A DNA stretch of 64,000 bases, taken from positions 6,352 through 70,351 of the forward strand of contig JBFMGC010000011.1 of assembly GCA_040752815.1 (NCBI GenBank). Direction: 5' to 3'. The notes beneath the pieces were generated by a model. The model had not been told where the DNA came from. It did not search any database and worked only from the letters and a program-made list of their open reading frames with translations. The stretch is from Candidatus Zixiibacteriota bacterium (GTDB lineage: Bacteria > Zixibacteria > MSB-5A5 > GN15 > FEB-12). The position numbers and the translations under genes are program-made. Of the stretch, positions 1,631 to 36,586 are shown one piece after another (the first letter of the stretch is position 1; each line of letters begins with the position of its first letter).

Positions 1631-3631
1631 ATGACTGCATCGAAACCAGATTCCGACTCCCCCCGCCGCGACCACGCCGGTGGCCGCGCCGGACCCTCGT
1701 GGCATCCCTCGCCGAACGTGGTACCGTCGGCTGCCCGTCAGCTCCTCGATTCCCTGCGTGGAATCGACGATATGGTGTATTTCCTGGGCTTCGACGGCCG
1801 CACCTGTGGGTTCAATCCGGCCAGCGGGGAGCTGACCGGCTATTCACTTGACGAACTGGAATCCGACCCCGGGTTTCTCGGTCACCTGATCCACCCCGAT
1901 GACCTCTCGGCGTTGCGCGATCTCCACACTGATCGGCAGCCATCGATTGAGATCGACTATCGTCTGAAGGGCCGGGATGGTTCCTACCGATGGGTGCACT
2001 CCCATCAGATCGGAGTGAGGGACGAAGACGGTATGCTGTCCGGATACATCTGCCTGGATCGTGACGTGTCGGAACAAAAGGCTGTTCAGGCCGCGGTCCA
2101 GGTCGAACGCGATCGCACGCTGGAGTACATTAACATAGCCGGTGTCATTTTGGTCGCCCTCGACACCCAGGGGCGAGTCACCATGATAAACCGCATGGGG
2201 CGTCAGATTCTCGGGTATGAAGAAAGCGAGATTATCGGCGCAGGCTGGTTCGAGCACTTTCTACCGGCGTCCGAAAGGCAGCGGACACGGCGTGCTTTTG
2301 ACCAACTGATGGCCGGAGAACTGAGTCTGGCCGAGCGTTTTAACAACCCGGTGCTGACCAAGGACGGCCGTGAGCGCCTGATATCCTGGCGCAACATGAT
2401 CCTCCGCGACAAGTCGGGCAACATCACGGGCACGCTCAGCAGCGGAGAAGATATCACCGACCGTCGCCGCGCCGAGCGAGCCCTGGAACAGAGCGAGGCT
2501 CAGTTTCGCGCTCTGTTCGAGGGTACTTCAAGTTGCATCGTATTCATCAAGGACCGAATCATCAAGTATGCCAACGCGGCGGCCCTGCGGATGTTCGGCT
2601 ATACGCGCGAGGAAATGATCGGCCGGGACACGATGATCGTGCACACCTCGCCTGAGAGCTACGAACAGGGCAATCGCATTGTCTATGAATCGGTCCGGCA
2701 GAACGGGACATGGCAGGGCGAGTGGCTGCTAAAGCGAAAAGACGGCAGCCGGGTTTGGATGGATACGTATGTGACGGCGATGCCCGATGGCGGAACCGTC
2801 GTGATTCTCCACGACATCACCGACAGGGTCCAGGTCAAGGCCGCGTTGAGCGAGCGGGAGGCTGAGCTGACTGCTATCTTTCGCGCGGCGCCAGTCGGCA
2901 TCGGCCTCACAGTCGATCGTGTACTCAAGCAGGCCAACGAAAAACTTTGTGCCATGCTGGGATACACTCCGGAGGAACTGATCGGGCAAAGTGCCCGGAT
3001 TCTCTATCCTACCGATGAAGAATTCGAATATGTCGGTCGGGTCAAATACGATATGATTCACGAAAAGGGCACCGGCACGGTGGAGACACGTTGGAAGCGC
3101 AAGGACGGGACGGTTATCGACATCCTGCTCAGCTCGACACCGGTCGATCCGGCCGACTGGTCGAAAGGAATCACTTTCACGGCGCTGGACATTACGGAGC
3201 GCAAGAAAAGCGAACAGGCGCTGCTCGACAAAAACGTCGCTCTCAGGGAAATCCTCAATCAGATCTCCGCCGACCGCGAGGCTATTCGCGAGCAGATCGC
3301 TACCAACATTGGCGAGACGGTGCTGCCGATGCTCAAGCGAATCGAGGAGAAGGCATCCCCGTCGCAGCTCCCCCTTGTGGCGCAGCTCGAAAAAGACTTT
3401 AAACAGATCAGCGCCCCCTTCCTTGATCTGCTGAAGAAGCGCCAGCCCGCGCTTACTCCGCGTGAGACGGAGATTTGTCGGCTGATCAAGAACGGCATGA
3501 CCTCAAAGCAGATCGCCGAAGCACTTAATGTTTCGCTGGGCACGGTCCACAAATACCGCGAGTTGATACGCCGCAAACTCGGCCTGGCGAATGTCGACAT
3601 CAACCTCACCAGCTACCTGCAGAGTCTCTGA
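1631..3631 (+). CDS. Multi-PAS one-component transcriptional regulator with C-terminal LuxR/GerE HTH
   Basis: Four PAS/PAC-like units each end in a K/R-DGS/T..W motif (YRLKGRDGSYRWV, VLTKDGRERLISW, LLKRKDGSRVWM, RWKRKDGTVIDI). The C-terminus reads LTPRETEICRLIKNGMTSKQIAEALNVSLGTVHKYRELIRRKLG, a LuxR-type HTH. No kinase or receiver domain is seen. The start codon is uncertain. Confidence 0.8.
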   Translation: MTASKPDSDSPRRDHAGGRAGPSWHPSPNVVPSAARQLLDSLRGIDDMVYFLGFDGRTCGFNPASGELTGYSLDELESDPGFLGHLIHPDDLSALRDLHTDRQPSIEIDYRLKGRDGSYRWVHSHQIGVRDEDGMLSGYICLDRDVSEQKAVQAAVQVERDRTLEYINIAGVILVALDTQGRVTMINRMGRQILGYEESEIIGAGWFEHFLPASERQRTRRAFDQLMAGELSLAERFNNPVLTKDGRERLISWRNMILRDKSGNITGTLSSGEDITDRRRAERALEQSEAQFRALFEGTSSCIVFIKDRIIKYANAAALRMFGYTREEMIGRDTMIVHTSPESYEQGNRIVYESVRQNGTWQGEWLLKRKDGSRVWMDTYVTAMPDGGTVVILHDITDRVQVKAALSEREAELTAIFRAAPVGIGLTVDRVLKQANEKLCAMLGYTPEELIGQSARILYPTDEEFEYVGRVKYDMIHEKGTGTVETRWKRKDGTVIDILLSSTPVDPADWSKGITFTALDITERKKSEQALLDKNVALREILNQISADREAIREQIATNIGETVLPMLKRIEEKASPSQLPLVAQLEKDFKQISAPFLDLLKKRQPALTPRETEICRLIKNGMTSKQIAEALNVSLGTVHKYRELIRRKLGLANVDINLTSYLQSL

Positions 3632-4768: not shown

Positions 4769-5488
4769 TCAGACCACGTATATCCGCACGTCGCCGATGA
4801 AGTGATTGCTGGCGATATACATTTTCGAAGGTGCGTCGCTATAGTCCGCGGTTTGAGCGTCCAGTGAATTTCCGAATCCGGATGACCGCTTGCCCATCAT
4901 CTCGATATCGCCGATAAAACTGGAGCTCTGCGCCAGAAGCGCCATCCCTTCGGGCACCAGGACGCGCACGTCACCTACGAATCCAGAGATGATCATGCGA
5001 TTGAGCCCCGGCGCCAGTTGTCCCCCGTGAAGCTTGACCTCGACATCGCCGATGAAGCTGCTGACCTCAACGTTCTGGAGCGAGACGCCGCTGCAGTCTA
5101 CGTAAAGGTCGCCGATGAATTTGTCGTAGCGCACCTTGCCGATCTTCCCCTGCTCAGGAGTCGCTGATACTCGTACGCTTTTGCCCGGGGCAGCCCCACG
5201 AGAAGTTCGATCTGATTCAGGCCGTCGGAAGTCTTGGCTATGAACCGCCGGCGCAGGCGGAGGGGACGGGTACGGGTACTGTTCGGCAGCCGTGCCGGTC
5301 GTTGGATCGACCTTCTCCTGGCTGCGCCGCCGGGCTAACAGCCACAACCCGACGCCGATCAAAAAAAGCGGAAAGAGGTAACCGAGGAATTCCCCGAAGG
5401 TGAAATCGAGCAGTCCGGTGGTCCGGCAGAGCAAGAGTACGCCCAGGACTATTAAAATCGCACCTGCTATCCATTTTTGCCCGGACAT
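4769..5488 (-). CDS. LiaF-like / cell-wall-active-antibiotic-response family membrane protein
   Basis: Two N-terminal TM helices (IAGAILIVLGVLLL, LFPLFLIGVGLWLLA) are followed by a Pro-rich linker. The C-terminal domain carries five F(I/V)GD(V/I/L) beta-strand repeats (FIGDLYV, FIGDVEV, FVGDVRV, FIGDIEM, FIGDVRI), as in LiaF/DUF2154 domains. Confidence 0.65.
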   Translation of the reverse strand: MSGQKWIAGAILIVLGVLLLCRTTGLLDFTFGEFLGYLFPLFLIGVGLWLLARRRSQEKVDPTTGTAAEQYPYPSPPPAPAVHSQDFRRPESDRTSRGAAPGKSVRVSATPEQGKIGKVRYDKFIGDLYVDCSGVSLQNVEVSSFIGDVEVKLHGGQLAPGLNRMIISGFVGDVRVLVPEGMALLAQSSSFIGDIEMMGKRSSGFGNSLDAQTADYSDAPSKMYIASNHFIGDVRIYVV

Positions 5489-5798: not shown

Positions 5799-7208
5799 CT
5801 ACTGCCCGTAACGCTTGCGGAATTCCTCCGCCGCCTTAATTCGCGCCTTCTTTACCTCTTCCGGTTCGTTGCCGGTGTACCACTTGTGGTCATCCATATC
5901 GAGTACCGACGCTATCAGCTCTTCGACTTCTTTGGCAGCTACCGCTTTCTCGTCACCTTCGGCCTTGCCGTGCTCGACTATCTCACGAGCCTGCGCCAGG
6001 AAGGGGCCGTAGAACCGGTCGGCAACTTCAAAGAAGCCGTGCCATTGCGTGTAATCGGGGGCGAACATGGCGGCGCCCATCCGCGCCCGACGTCCCTCGT
6101 GATGCCAGAGATAGAAGTAGGTCCACTCGAACTCATCGTCGAAAGTAATATCCGCCGTGATTAGTCCGGTCGATCTGATCTTGTCATAGATATTGGTCGC
6201 CGGGATTGCGAACTTGTTGTTGTAGAGTTCGACCGCAGCGTCGTACTGCGTGTAGAAGTTGTCTACGTAACTGCTCGTGTGGCAGTTGGAGCAGACGTTT
6301 TTCATGTCTGCCCGACGAGCCTCCCAGCTCTTGACCGTCTTGCCGGCCTTTTTCGCGGCGGCGTCGACCTTTTGCGAAATCGGCGGGCGCAGAGTCCAAC
6401 TGATGCGGTCGCCGACATCGTGTGTCAACGGTAAATCCTGGGTGGCCGACATGTGGCAGGTCGCGCAGGTCGGCGCGGCCGAGTAGTCCACGCCCACTAT
6501 CCATGACGCGCTTCCCAGTGCCATGCGGTCGATATTCGCGTAATAGGCGATCCCGTGCTTTGATTCCTCGTAGATTTCTTTCTGGGGATGGTCCGGGCCC
6601 AGGTGGCACTTGCCGCAATTCTCGGGCTGGCGCGCGAGGGCGGCGTCGAACGAATGGCGGCTATGGCAGGCGGCGCATGACCCCTTGGAGCCGTCGGGGT
6701 TGATCCGCCCCATGCCGGAGTTTGGCCAGGTGGCCGGGTCAAGCTGCCCCTCGGCGAGCACCTTGACTACCGAACCATGACACTGCTTGCAGCCGTTGAC
6801 CGCGGCCGCCGGACCCTCGACCACCTCACCGAGGACATTGTCCAGCGAACCCAGAATCGCACCGGCATCGGCATGGTGCGATTTCTGAAACTGCTCGAAC
6901 TCGACCTGGTGGCACTTAGAGCAGTCTTTCGGTGAGACGATTATGGCGATGTTATACCCGTTGTGCTCGAAACCGTCGGGATCACTCGGCTCAGCCGCGT
7001 GACACTCAAAGCAGCCGACATCGGCTGCGTAGTGACGGCTCCAGCGCCATTCCTTTACCAGTCCCGGCATGTCGGATTCGTGGCATTCGATACACGATGC
7101 CGACTCCTCGGTCAGCTTGTTGGGAACCGAGCGATACTGGCCGACCACGGCTGACCCGGCCAGCCCCATAATCAGTATCCCGATTAGTATAGTTTTTCGC
7201 TGTCTCAT
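5799..7208 (-). CDS. Octahaem c-type cytochrome, hydroxylamine-oxidoreductase-like (HAO/epsilon-Hao-like) family
   Basis: Eight CxxCH motifs are present (CIECH, CFECH, CSKCH, CKQCH, CAACH, CGKCH, CATCH, CSNCH). There is an N-terminal signal/anchor (ILIGILIMGLAGSAVV). The C-terminal segment WTYFYLWHHEGRRARMGAAMFAPDYTQWHGFFE matches my recollection of HAO-family proteins. A GGAGG sits 12 nt upstream of the ATG. Confidence 0.75.
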   Translation of the reverse strand: MRQRKTILIGILIMGLAGSAVVGQYRSVPNKLTEESASCIECHESDMPGLVKEWRWSRHYAADVGCFECHAAEPSDPDGFEHNGYNIAIIVSPKDCSKCHQVEFEQFQKSHHADAGAILGSLDNVLGEVVEGPAAAVNGCKQCHGSVVKVLAEGQLDPATWPNSGMGRINPDGSKGSCAACHSRHSFDAALARQPENCGKCHLGPDHPQKEIYEESKHGIAYYANIDRMALGSASWIVGVDYSAAPTCATCHMSATQDLPLTHDVGDRISWTLRPPISQKVDAAAKKAGKTVKSWEARRADMKNVCSNCHTSSYVDNFYTQYDAAVELYNNKFAIPATNIYDKIRSTGLITADITFDDEFEWTYFYLWHHEGRRARMGAAMFAPDYTQWHGFFEVADRFYGPFLAQAREIVEHGKAEGDEKAVAAKEVEELIASVLDMDDHKWYTGNEPEEVKKARIKAAEEFRKRYGQ

Positions 7209-7268
7209 AGTGTGTTTAATCCTCCAGTCGTATCGCCTTCAGTCGTCTTTATCAGTCGAGTACGCTTG

Positions 7269-8561
7269 TCAAAAGTTCACAGTGGTTTGAGTGTACAGCC
7301 ACCATGTCGGGTCGGCCTGGGTAAGGTCGGCATCGCCCTCGCGAAATCGTACGAACGATTCTTTGGGCAGAAACACCGACCCTCCCGCAGTAGCCTTGAC
7401 TCCGGCTATGCTAACGGTGTTGATCGTGATGTCTATCTCCATGCCGACGTCGAAGGTGGCCTGTCCGGTGCCGGGATCGCGATAGTTCTGCGCCGTGCGG
7501 AAGTAGTGGAAGTCCGCGCCGGCGGTCCAGTTAGGATGAGGATTAAACCTGGCTCGACCCAGGATATCTATAAGCCCCGCCGACTCCGAATTGACGAAGT
7601 TATCCATATAGCCCCTGAACTTGTGGCCGGTGTAATACGTGTTGTCGTAAGTTTTGATTTTCGTGTCGGTGGAATCATCGTCGCCCGAGGCGAAGTCGAC
7701 ACCGGCCGAAATCTGTGCTTTGGCGCTACCGGCGAAAGCATAACCGGCCTCGGCAGTTAACATAAAAGCCTGGAGATCGTAAGTAGTCGCTTCGTTGATA
7801 ACCTGGCCCGTCTGAAATGCACCGTTTAGCTCTAAATCAAGTGGTTCGATCTGCTTCTTATAGTAGATGCCGAAGTTCCACCGATCGAGCACATGATCGT
7901 CCGGATCGGTCACGCTTGTTTCTTCTCCAAAGAGTGATCCGGCCGTGTCAAAATCGATTTCGTAAAAGGCGAACAGTTCTACTCCGGCGCTGTCCAGCTC
8001 GACCAGCGCACCGAAAACATCGAAATCACCGTTGAAGCCTTCGTAATTCTCTTCCTGCGGTTTTAGCCAGAAGCCGTTTATGGTGAAGCCGGGGGACTCA
8101 TACCACCCGATCGCCCCCTCCCATATGCGGCCGACATTGTGCCAGTCTACCGAGCCGAACACGCGCTGATTTCCCAGGTCGAACGCAAACCGGCCGGCCT
8201 TGCTGCCAAAGCCGTCGAACCAGATCCGGTCAACCTGGATGTATGCCTGATGCAGGTCAACGTTTTTGCCGTCGTTCAACGAGCCGGACTGCAGCTTGCC
8301 GAACTGATCCCTGCCTCCGAGAGTGCGGCTGTCCTGGAATTGAACAAAAGCGTGCGCGTTGCTGTCGATCGTGGCCTCTAAGCCGACCCGTGTTCTCATG
8401 AGCGCAAAAGTCCGGGTCGTGAACGCCGTATCGAATGACTTTTCATCAAGCTCGCACCGCACTCGGATCTGCCCCGATGTTTTAAGGGTCGTCTCCGCCG
8501 ATGCCGCACCAGTGAGTATCGCCAGAATCGGGATCAGGACGCTGAAATGACATTTTTTCAC
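7269..8561 (-). CDS. Outer-membrane beta-barrel porin-like protein (possibly alginate-export-like family)
   Basis: Start is reassigned to the GTG at 8561, preceded by AAGGAG. This gives the signal peptide VKKCHFSVLIPILAILTGAASA-ETT. The sequence shows an alternating amphipathic pattern rich in Gly/Asp/aromatic residues and ends YTQTTVNF, with the terminal Phe typical of OMP beta-signals. It lies 60 nt upstream of the octahaem cytochrome on the same strand. Confidence 0.6.
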   Translation of the reverse strand: MKKCHFSVLIPILAILTGAASAETTLKTSGQIRVRCELDEKSFDTAFTTRTFALMRTRVGLEATIDSNAHAFVQFQDSRTLGGRDQFGKLQSGSLNDGKNVDLHQAYIQVDRIWFDGFGSKAGRFAFDLGNQRVFGSVDWHNVGRIWEGAIGWYESPGFTINGFWLKPQEENYEGFNGDFDVFGALVELDSAGVELFAFYEIDFDTAGSLFGEETSVTDPDDHVLDRWNFGIYYKKQIEPLDLELNGAFQTGQVINEATTYDLQAFMLTAEAGYAFAGSAKAQISAGVDFASGDDDSTDTKIKTYDNTYYTGHKFRGYMDNFVNSESAGLIDILGRARFNPHPNWTAGADFHYFRTAQNYRDPGTGQATFDVGMEIDITINTVSIAGVKATAGGSVFLPKESFVRFREGDADLTQADPTWWLYTQTTVNF

Positions 8562-8647: not shown

Positions 8648-8690
8648 ATAATCGCAGTTCATGCCTAAGCTGTCATTTGACTCAAGTCAA
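8648..8690 (-). promoter_or_regulatory. Candidate FNR/CRP-family (Dnr/FixK-type) box plus -10 element for the porin-cytochrome operon
   Basis: A perfect palindrome TTGAC-TCAA-GTCAA at 8677-8690 fits the TTGAY-N4-RTCAA consensus. On the minus strand a GATTAT hexamer (8648-8653) lies 23 nt downstream of the box. That spacing would centre the box near -42, as in class II FNR-type promoters. Confidence 0.4.
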
Positions 8691-35835: not shown

Positions 35836-36064
35836 GCAGCTTACTCAGGCCTATCTGACTGCACCGACGCTGTCGGGCTGAGCCGCCCGCGGCATGCGGA
35901 AAAAAAGACTCATCCTTCTCGACAATTGACGGGTAGAATAGGTTGAAATGGACCGTGTAATATTATGCTTGAAAAGCGCCCCTCATGGGCGCATATTTGC
36001 AGGCAGCAATATGTGGTTCGGGCCCGCCGTTGCGGGCCAAAATGACAACCTCAGGAGGTTTTCG

Positions 36065-36586
36065 ATGAGTTTCCGTTGGTTGAGCGTGATGTTTACGGCA
36101 GTTGCGGTTCTGGCGTTCACGGGGTCGCTGATGGCCCAGGAGGCCGCCAAGACCGAGCCGGCCAAGCACCAGTATGTCGGTGTCAAGGCCTGCAAACTGT
36201 GCCACAAGAAGGACGGAATTTTCGACAGCTGGTCGGCAACTGCACACGCCACCGCTTTCGACAAACTGTCCGAGGAAGACAAGAAGAACGAGGCGCTAAA
36301 GCCCTATTATACGACCGGGACTACCGCCGAGGGTGAGCTTCTAACCGGCGTGCAGTGCGAGGTTTGCCACGGGCCTGGTTCGGATTACAAGAAGAAGTCA
36401 GTTATGGAAAGCCGGGAGGCATCGGTGGCCGCCGGGCTGCTTATTCCGGACGCCAAGACCTGTGCCAAGTGCCATAACGATAAGGCTCCGGCCAAGCTGG
36501 CGGCTACAGCCAAGGACTTCGATTTCGCCAAGCTGAAAGAGAAAGGGGCCCACGCTGCGGCGATCAAGACCGAGGCGGCCAAGTAA
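36065..36586 (+). CDS. Small periplasmic trihaem c-type cytochrome
   Basis: Start is set at ATG 36065, preceded by AGGAGG. Signal peptide MSFRWLSVMFTAVAVLAFTGSLMAQEA. Three CxxCH motifs (CKLCH, CEVCH, CAKCH). Confidence 0.8.
   Translation: MSFRWLSVMFTAVAVLAFTGSLMAQEAAKTEPAKHQYVGVKACKLCHKKDGIFDSWSATAHATAFDKLSEEDKKNEALKPYYTTGTTAEGELLTGVQCEVCHGPGSDYKKKSVMESREASVAAGLLIPDAKTCAKCHNDKAPAKLAATAKDFDFAKLKEKGAHAAAIKTEAAK

Follow-up and report, generated by a model that had tools for sequence, protein, structure and literature searches.

A putative operon of an AlgE-like outer-membrane channel and a predicted reductive octahaem cytochrome of the hydroxylamine oxidoreductase family in a Zixibacteria genome

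We describe a pair of genes on the minus strand of a 64,000-nucleotide stretch of DNA from the metagenome-assembled genome of a Candidatus Zixiibacteriota bacterium (GenBank assembly GCA_040752815.1, contig JBFMGC010000011.1, positions 6,352 to 70,351; hereafter the window). The upstream gene encodes an outer-membrane beta-barrel protein of the alginate export family (the barrel), and the downstream gene encodes an octahaem c-type cytochrome that belongs to the HAO (hydroxylamine oxidoreductase) family (the cytochrome); their features are collected in Table 1. The open reading frame (ORF) of the barrel can be read from 8636, and the GTG at 8561 is preceded by AAGGAG. Over its full length, the product from this GTG is identical to the 430 amino acid long NCBI entry “alginate export family protein [Ca. 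Zixiibacteriota],” and the cytochrome is likewise identical to an NCBI entry from the same 74-kb contig. A preliminary description of this DNA had called the first product porin-like, with a signal peptide and a C-terminal ..TVNF; we find a predicted cleavage after ..GAASA, ahead of ETT, and the C-terminus ..TQTTVNF. Its report of a 60-nt gap without a hairpin, followed by a ribosome-binding site of the cytochrome's own, is also borne out: the spacer has exactly this length, a terminator scan of its minus strand yielded no element, it folds no better than shuffled sequence (z = -0.63), and the GGAGG motif lies 12 nt ahead of the cytochrome ATG at 7208. In related pairs the two genes are separated by 3-66 nt or overlap by a few bases (L090, L092, L107), which is consistent with co-transcription of barrel and cytochrome. 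The candidate promoter upstream of the barrel matches the consensus at 9 of 12 positions, and comparable sites are barely enriched (3 found versus 1.7 expected in shuffles). A hairpin that follows the stop codon of the cytochrome does not exceed shuffled sequence in stability.

Table 1. Positions of the barrel and cytochrome genes and of their predicted features in the window
Feature	Position	Strand	Description
Barrel gene	7269..8561	-	430 aa; predicted 18-strand AlgE-like outer-membrane channel; Pfam Alginate_exp; C-terminus ..TVNF
Cytochrome gene	5799..7208	-	469 aa; HAO-family octahaem c-type cytochrome, IhOCC-type, without cross-linking Tyr
Intergenic spacer	7209..7268	-	60 nt; GGAGG at 7225-7221; no terminator
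Putative signal peptide of the barrel, VKKCHFSVLIPILAILTGAASA, followed by ETT	8496..8561	-	read from sequence; AlphaFold2 helix 2-20, first strand from residue 24
Cytochrome N-terminus, putative signal peptide or anchor	7140..7208	-	residues 1 to ~23; model helix 2-22, then low-confidence linker
Candidate sigma-70-like promoter, ATGACA-17-GATTAT with TG	8648..8676	-	upstream of barrel; weak consensus match
Fourth CxxCH, C140-K-Q-C143-H144	6777..6791	-	predicted five-coordinate catalytic haem; aligns to Nitrosomonas europaea HAO (NeHAO) ..GCTMCH.. just before residue 234
Asp205-His206	6591..6596	-	equivalent of catalytic Asp267-His268 of NeHAO
Trp389	6042..6044	-	occupies position of cross-linking Tyr467 of NeHAO

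Are the two genes found together elsewhere? We examined 80 genomic loci centred on homologues of the cytochrome (52-81% identity), which include Vibrionaceae, Nitrospinaceae, Methylococcales, Thiomargarita, Phycisphaerae, Acidobacteriota and Calditrichaeota. The barrel adjoins the cytochrome in nine of them, upstream or downstream: three are relatives syntenic with the window (L001, L002, L004), three have the barrel upstream in contexts other than that of the window (L048, L050, L074), and three have it downstream (L046, L057, L061). Nine look-ups of barrel homologues gave the cytochrome directly downstream in five cases and absent in three; in a sixth case (L089) the contig ends within a cytochrome-like start. 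The unrelated contexts L082, L088 and L090 have the order barrel, cytochrome and five-haem NapC/NrfH-like protein, in one instance preceded by a Crp/Fnr regulator, and a metagenome-assembled genome of Calditrichaeota (L050) has the order napA-napG-napH-napB-x-napD-barrel-cytochrome. We also examined 80 metagenome loci centred on the barrel. Of these, 53 were evaluable, the negative ones among them with at least 1.5 kb on both sides of the barrel, and 27 had flanks that were too short. A gene of a multihaem nitrite-reductase type is present in 41 of the 53, next to the barrel in nearly all: an HAO-like octahaem gene in 28, nrfH-nrfA in 11, both HAO-like and nrfHA genes in one, and a TvNiR-type octahaem nitrite reductase (ONR) in one. 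The barrel-linked NrfA and NrfH exceed their NCBIfam cut-offs (614 versus 595 bits and 171 versus 134 bits, respectively), the ONR matches PDB 2ot4 with an E-value of 9e-184, and the barrels found next to nrfHA are 29-33% identical to that of the window. The pairing of barrel and cytochrome is therefore not due to chance, and the barrel family is recurrently linked to three families of multihaem nitrite reductases. The preliminary description had seen its hypothesis as depending on such conservation, and many further genomes do keep the barrel beside such cytochromes, with several different gene orders and contexts.

The strongest case for chance or merely historical neighbours, without functional coupling, comes from Zixibacteria, where the pair lies in a conserved block, ornithine carbamoyltransferase (OTC)-barrel-[cytochrome]-LiaF-HslUV-XerC-TopA; the barrel could simply be resident in this block and the cytochrome could occupy a variable slot. 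In L081, L085 and L086 the synteny OTC-barrel-LiaF is kept and the barrel is intact, and the cytochrome is absent; several metagenome loci have the same arrangement. In a neighbour-joining tree of the barrel every sequence from a locus without the cytochrome has as its sister one from a locus with it, which implies repeated loss or gain of the cytochrome at this site. Against this explanation, the pair is found beyond the Zixibacteria synteny, in further phyla and with either gene first (in the nine loci L046, L048, L050, L057, L061, L074, L082, L088 and L090), its genes sometimes nearly touch or overlap, and the barrel family stands also by NrfHA and ONR, with such an enzyme in over three quarters of the evaluable loci. 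We therefore consider an uncoupled neighbourhood very unlikely. What the cytochrome-less loci do establish is that the barrel is not strictly dedicated to this cytochrome: evidently it does not depend on it and can persist alone, perhaps serving a reductase encoded elsewhere. The earlier proposal was of a dedicated porin that may supply a small anionic or N-oxide substrate. A porin for a small anionic N-oxide gains independent support from the same barrel family beside nrfHA and TvNiR-type ONR, and the three Zixibacteria loci speak against “dedicated.” In these loci the slot between barrel and LiaF-like gene measures only 86-195 nt (L081 7293-7488; L085 7326-7412; L086 7275-7406), and the cytochrome is cleanly absent.

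The identity of the cytochrome is clear at the level of family. It scores 83 bits against Pfam PF13447 (cut-off 21.9), its eight CxxCH motifs, all counted correctly in the preliminary description, stand in HAO order and spacing, and they are invariant in an alignment of 29 sequences. PF13447 is the HAO family that we take to be “clade 1” of Soares et al. 2022. In a phmmer search of PDB sequences the top match is IhOCC of Ignicoccus hospitalis (4qo5, E-value 3e-50), followed by Kuenenia HAOr, NeHAO, HOX and hydrazine dehydrogenase (HDH) with E-values of 1e-17 to 1e-12, and a profile of the 29 sequences gives the same order (IhOCC, 1.7e-86; NeHAO, approximately 1e-46). The AlphaFold2 monomer model (predicted local distance difference test [pLDDT] 91) has the HAO fold including the long C-terminal helices, and its Foldseek template-modelling (TM) scores are 0.72 to 4qo5, 0.58-0.61 to HAOr, NeHAO, HOX and HDH, and at most 0.31 to ONR and NrfA; HAO itself is a homotrimer with a ring of 24 haems. 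We also considered membership in the NrfA, ONR (TvNiR), Otr and MccA families. The catalytic haem is bound by CxxCK in NrfA and ONR, and in Otr and MccA it belongs to the N-terminal module and has special ligation. In the cytochrome there is no CxxCK motif, the fold matches are weak (TM 0.31 to 8rv0, approximately 0.2 to NrfA), and profile matches to NrfA are limited to a stretch of 65 residues. Together, the hidden Markov model, sequence and fold comparisons rule out these four as the identity of the cytochrome, which belongs to the HAO family and does not cluster with other octahaem families. This family is large, with more than 8000 database matches and, among the matches listed, 279 clusters at 50% identity with an E-value of at most 1e-30; the members named for ten distant cluster representatives are from Planctomycetota/Brocadiaceae and Desulfobacterales only, and a Brocadiaceae cluster of 51% identity may correspond to kuste4574. 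Taken by itself, the cytochrome is a further member of a known, poorly characterised clade.

The active-site residues indicate the direction in which the enzyme would work. In HAO the catalytic P460 haem is the fourth haem, and the fourth CxxCH of the cytochrome aligns accordingly (Table 1). Both phmmer and the profile align ..HLGPDHPQ.. of the cytochrome to ..HSGVDHNN.. of NeHAO, and the Asp-His pair is kept in most of the family; Tyr334 of NeHAO lies opposite Arg274. Around Tyr467, which cross-links to the catalytic haem of the neighbouring subunit, the profile alignment is ungapped from G456 to Y478 of NeHAO and places NPGGWTY467TEGW against APDYTQW389HGFF. The equivalent position is Trp in Kuenenia HAOr and Phe in IhOCC, and in the 29-sequence alignment of the family no position has Tyr in 90% or more of the sequences. 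Two other tyrosines were tried as the cross-link residue and rejected. Tyr444, in the ..DDHKWYTGNEP.. stretch to which the preliminary description had drawn attention, is Phe in homologues 76-82% identical, so its suggested relevance falls away; Tyr386 (..PDY..) lies three residues before the Tyr467 equivalent in the ungapped alignment and is Phe in some family members. With Trp at the Tyr467 position and Asp-His kept, the cytochrome is predicted to be of the reductive, non-P460 HAO type, in agreement with the short reductive type that its 469 amino acids had earlier suggested. Characterised HAOs without the cross-link act as reductases (PMC8042395).

The names given to homologues in the databases would lead to a different conclusion. 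“Hydroxylamine oxidoreductase” and “hydroxylamine dehydrogenase” are common annotations among them, and there is a weak match of the cytochrome to the NCBIfam HDH model (75.6 bits versus a cut-off of 900); both would point to an oxidative, P460-type hydroxylamine or hydrazine dehydrogenase. Against such an enzyme stand Trp389, the lack of a highly conserved Tyr just described, the cross-link-free IhOCC and HAOr as nearest structures, and the lack of any amo or hzs context in any locus; an oxidative role is hardly credible.

The preliminary description had also given the cytochrome an N-terminal hydrophobic anchor. The hydrophobic stretch is present, but it is probably not a permanent anchor, since in close homologues this stretch ends in AXA-like sites (..TLA/A, ..ISA/E, ..VFA/D, the slash marking the putative cleavage; judged by eye on the alignment). 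The N-terminus thus looks like a cleavable Sec signal.

The barrel, for which the preliminary description had left the family to be assigned, is a member of Alginate_exp (Pfam PF13372; E-value 4.5e-27, 95 bits versus a cut-off of 25), and it has the 18 strands, the predicted signal peptide and the C-terminal aromatic residue of this family. Its AlphaFold2 model (pLDDT 83) finds AlgE structures as best Foldseek matches (TM 0.67, E-value 5e-17). No NCBIfam model matches it, and sequence searches of PDB are marginal (2l7q with an E-value of 0.48 for the single sequence, OmpM1 with 0.003 for the profile). Nine arginines of the barrel are invariant (R33, R35, R56, R58, R79, R124, R133, R145, R227), as are H104, H313, H352 and one Lys, and this set is still invariant in homologues of only 29-33% identity. 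The pairs R33/R35 and R56/R58 are spaced i/i+2 on neighbouring strands, which is the pattern expected of residues facing the lumen, and the invariant Arg and His of the model therefore probably do so. The pore of AlgE is Arg-lined and electropositive. AlgE of Pseudomonas aeruginosa has in common with the barrel the Pfam family and the 18 strands and is its best fold match; however, the two are only 10-12% identical, and no alginate biosynthesis genes lie near the barrel. More broadly, genes for polysaccharide synthesis are found by the barrel neither in the window nor in approximately 170 related loci, save one glycosyltransferase next to L130. A polysaccharide is an unlikely cargo because the partners of the barrel are periplasmic nitrite reductases.

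A barrel encoded with a multihaem cytochrome might also call to mind a porin-cytochrome conduit that passes electrons across the outer membrane, like MtrAB or the Pcc complexes of Geobacter, fed in relatives by a quinol dehydrogenase of the NapC/NirT type. The modules of barrel, octahaem cytochrome and NapC/NrfH-like protein in L082, L088 and L090 superficially resemble CymA-MtrA-MtrB, and the cytochrome has weak Pfam matches to the MtrC/MtrF domain. Conduits of this kind have a wide barrel of 20-26 strands (26 in MtrB) that sheathes an elongated multihaem wire, together with a cytochrome on the outer surface. The AlgE-like fold of 18 strands is narrower; the cytochrome is compactly folded like HAO, with oligomerisation helices and a catalytic pocket that is conserved, and does not have the form of such a wire; nearby genes encode no outer-surface cytochrome, and the barrel pairs also with the enzymes NrfA and ONR. 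On these grounds an electron conduit is most improbable.

The neighbours of the cytochrome's homologues vary by lineage and nearly always suggest quinol-linked N-oxide metabolism. Beside homologues of 52-61% identity in other lineages we find NapC/NrfH-type tetrahaem proteins, Rieske proteins with cytochrome b, NrfD/FeS/multihaem modules, fused multihaem-cytochrome b proteins, NarK-type transporters of the major facilitator superfamily (MFS), Amt, Rrf2 regulators and hemerythrin. A NapC/NrfH-type gene adjoins the homologue in L022, in other Vibrionaceae and in L082, L088 and L090. The NapA encoded near a homologue scores above its NCBIfam cut-off, and genes for NapG, NapH, NapB and NapD are also among the neighbours; nap genes lie in L050. 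In a group of Gammaproteobacteria (L030-L037, L041-L043, L047, L049, L068) the cytochrome is followed by a fusion of 640-680 amino acids that joins a multihaem part to a cytochrome-b561-like membrane part, and a NarK-type MFS transporter and/or Amt is often encoded upstream. In Grimontia celer (L015) two tandem copies of a block of two ORFs, cytochrome and NapC-type gene lie within 9.6 kb; the repeat may reflect a true duplication or an error of assembly. A conserved protein of approximately 500 amino acids, which has five CxxCH motifs and whose N-terminal region is hydrophobic (L082 8829-10334, L088 7715-9211, L090 5683-7167, L102 6697-8223), always comes directly after the barrel-cytochrome pair. 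Only about 100 of its residues resemble NrfH or NapC/NirT, and it may represent an undescribed type of quinol dehydrogenase.

From family, fold and linkage taken together, we think it probable that the two genes of the window form an operon for an outer-membrane channel for N-oxyanions and a periplasmic HAO-type reductase of nitrite (or hydroxylamine); its substrate, product, electron donor and co-transcription are what we infer from the comparisons above. The AlgE-like channel would admit a small N-oxyanion, most likely nitrite and possibly nitrate, to the periplasm. The cytochrome, exported by Sec, would reduce nitrite (or hydroxylamine or nitric oxide [NO]) at its five-coordinate fourth haem. 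The product would probably be ammonium, because the other partners of the barrel are ammonifiers and homologues of the cytochrome adjoin Amt. Electrons would come from a quinol-oxidising partner encoded elsewhere in the genome.

The nearest known systems resemble different parts of this proposal. IhOCC, described as an octahaem nitrite reductase without P460 (PMC9250108), is the best match of the cytochrome in sequence and fold, lacks the Tyr cross-link and carries its eight haems in the order of HAO; but it is archaeal, approximately 27% identical (Foldseek alignment), and has long insertions that are absent from the window cytochrome. It is also reported to be membrane-associated via an N-terminal helix, whereas the window cytochrome more likely has a cleavable signal peptide, and no barrel partner of it is known. 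HAOr of Kuenenia stuttgartiensis (kustc0458, 6h5l) is a reductase with the HAO fold (TM 0.61) and with Trp at the cross-link position; its differences are an identity of approximately 20%, a dihaem partner with which it is complexed, NO as product and its place in the anammoxosome. Caldithrix abyssi, of the Fibrobacterota-Chlorobiota-Bacteroidota (FCB) group, performs nitrate ammonification without NrfA, and its authors assign the role to an “epsilon-Hao” encoded next to nap (PMC5317091), an arrangement like that of L050. In Bacteroides thetaiotaomicron the alginate-export-family gene BT1414 belongs to a co-regulated nrfAH operon (BT1414-BT1418), where it is listed without interpretation (PMC10434189). 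Likened to our barrel by its family label, BT1414 has the Pfam family in common with it and is encoded with a periplasmic multihaem nitrite reductase, although the partner of BT1414 is NrfA and not an HAO-type enzyme.

Several observations weigh against the proposed channel and reductase, beginning with the cytochrome-less loci of Zixibacteria and metagenomes. Twelve of the 53 evaluable barrel loci have no multihaem gene. The preliminary description had seen no NapC/NrfH/CycB-type quinol dehydrogenase and no other nitrogen-cycle gene adjacent to the pair, and this is correct: no quinol dehydrogenase, nitrate reductase or nitrogen-cycle gene adjoins it, and no nap or nar gene occurs in the 64-kb window. 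Its neighbours are of housekeeping or regulatory kinds, namely a LiaF-like protein, OTC, a XerC-type recombinase, a PAS/LuxR regulator and topoisomerase I (TopA). Epsilon-Hao of Campylobacterota, which reduces nitrite and hydroxylamine in vitro (PMC8042395), is likened to the window cytochrome by its features (the cytochrome is short, as in this type of about 450-480 amino acids, and Tyr-less); the window cytochrome differs in having no HaoB/NapC-type gene or nap cluster beside it, and descriptions of epsilon-Hao, that of Caldithrix included, mention no barrel. The roles of channel and reductase that we assign to the pair and to the barrel subfamily rest on family and linkage. Nitrite is small enough for general porins, so that a requirement for a specific channel is a matter of argument and not of finding. 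The HAO family outside the nitrifier/anammox clade is largely uncharacterised (PMC9213671), and Kuenenia HAOr yields NO rather than ammonium, so other products are conceivable (PMC8042395).

Could the pair act on another substrate? The enzyme might serve the detoxification of hydroxylamine or NO, or the respiration of a sulfur oxyanion (sulfite, thiosulfate or tetrathionate) that the barrel would admit. Hydroxylamine, NO and sulfite are also substrates of NrfA and its relatives. No function is assigned to HAO proteins outside the nitrifier/anammox clade, for one group of which sulfur substrates have been suggested (PMC9213671). Rrf2 regulators and hemerythrin/YtfE-like genes near the homologues in L046 and L162 fit nitrosative stress, and the lack of nap and nar genes from the window can be counted on this side as well. 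On the other hand, nitrite ammonification is the trait common to the three partner families of the barrel, homologues of the cytochrome adjoin nap genes, NarK-type transporters and Amt, and NO and hydroxylamine are uncharged and have no need of an Arg-lined channel. We regard a substrate of this kind as unlikely, and nitrite remains our preferred one.

Some loci and neighbouring genes merit separate mention. L162 (2240-6253) contains a TvNiR-type ONR, the barrel and MoaA, with a hemerythrin/YtfE-like gene upstream; in L151 (3782-6227) the ORFs around the barrel have the sizes and order seen in L162, and the ONR gene is lacking. L046 (3864-10239) has the order Rrf2, NapH-like polyferredoxin, hemerythrin, HAO-like cytochrome, barrel and a second HAO-like paralogue; the latter has 412 amino acids and eight CxxCH motifs and is only 28% identical to the window cytochrome. 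In the window itself the sole other haem protein is encoded by a 212 amino acid long ORF at 35948-36586 (+) with three CxxCH motifs and weak matches to multihaem Pfam families (MtrC/MtrF domain, c554, c7); its product could be a periplasmic electron carrier. The LiaF-like gene at 4769-5488 was considered as a part of the system and rejected, as it lies beside the barrel in relatives with or without the cytochrome. Between this gene and xerC the loci L081, L083, L086 and L087 have hslU-hslV, which the window does not have at that place. A LuxR-type regulator with four PAS domains lies between topA and xerC of the window at 1631-3631 (+), and no such gene is called there in the same four loci.

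The preliminary description did not know the pairing as described. In so far as we found no paper that discusses a linkage of barrel and reductase, this stands; an analogous pairing is nevertheless visible in the operon table for B. thetaiotaomicron cited above, the sole trace of it that we found. Our literature searches returned no paper that joins alginate export with octahaem, multihaem or hydroxylamine subjects, and a 2025 review of NrfA makes no mention of a porin or the outer membrane. As a kind, a substrate-specific porin encoded with its periplasmic enzyme is already known. To our knowledge, there is no characterised outer-membrane channel specific for nitrite. It is tempting to go one step further: the AlgE-like subfamily with the invariant Arg and His may be a dedicated nitrite (N-oxyanion) channel, recruited repeatedly by three periplasmic nitrite ammonifiers of distinct evolutionary origin, namely HAO/IhOCC-type enzymes, NrfHA and TvNiR-type ONR. 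We advance this tentatively, as plausible rather than probable. If this is true, dissimilatory nitrite reduction to ammonium would have in the channel a component so far unrecognised, and the members of the large uncharacterised clade of IhOCC-type HAO proteins would reduce nitrite physiologically.

Dissimilatory nitrite reduction to ammonium retains fixed nitrogen in sediments and soils, and its textbook inventory ends at the periplasm. The barrel beside three unrelated nitrite reductases suggests that, in the FCB group and its neighbours at least, the entry of nitrite through the outer membrane may be subject to control, and B. thetaiotaomicron, with a gene of this kind in its nrf operon, offers a direct test of the idea. 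Through the linkage, the HAO-like genes that abound in Zixibacteria, Calditrichota, Acidobacteriota and others gain a functional anchor as well. Often labelled “hydroxylamine oxidoreductase,” these genes may enter metagenome surveys as markers of nitrification; since they lack the cross-linking Tyr and have a partner in common with NrfA, they should be read as reductases.

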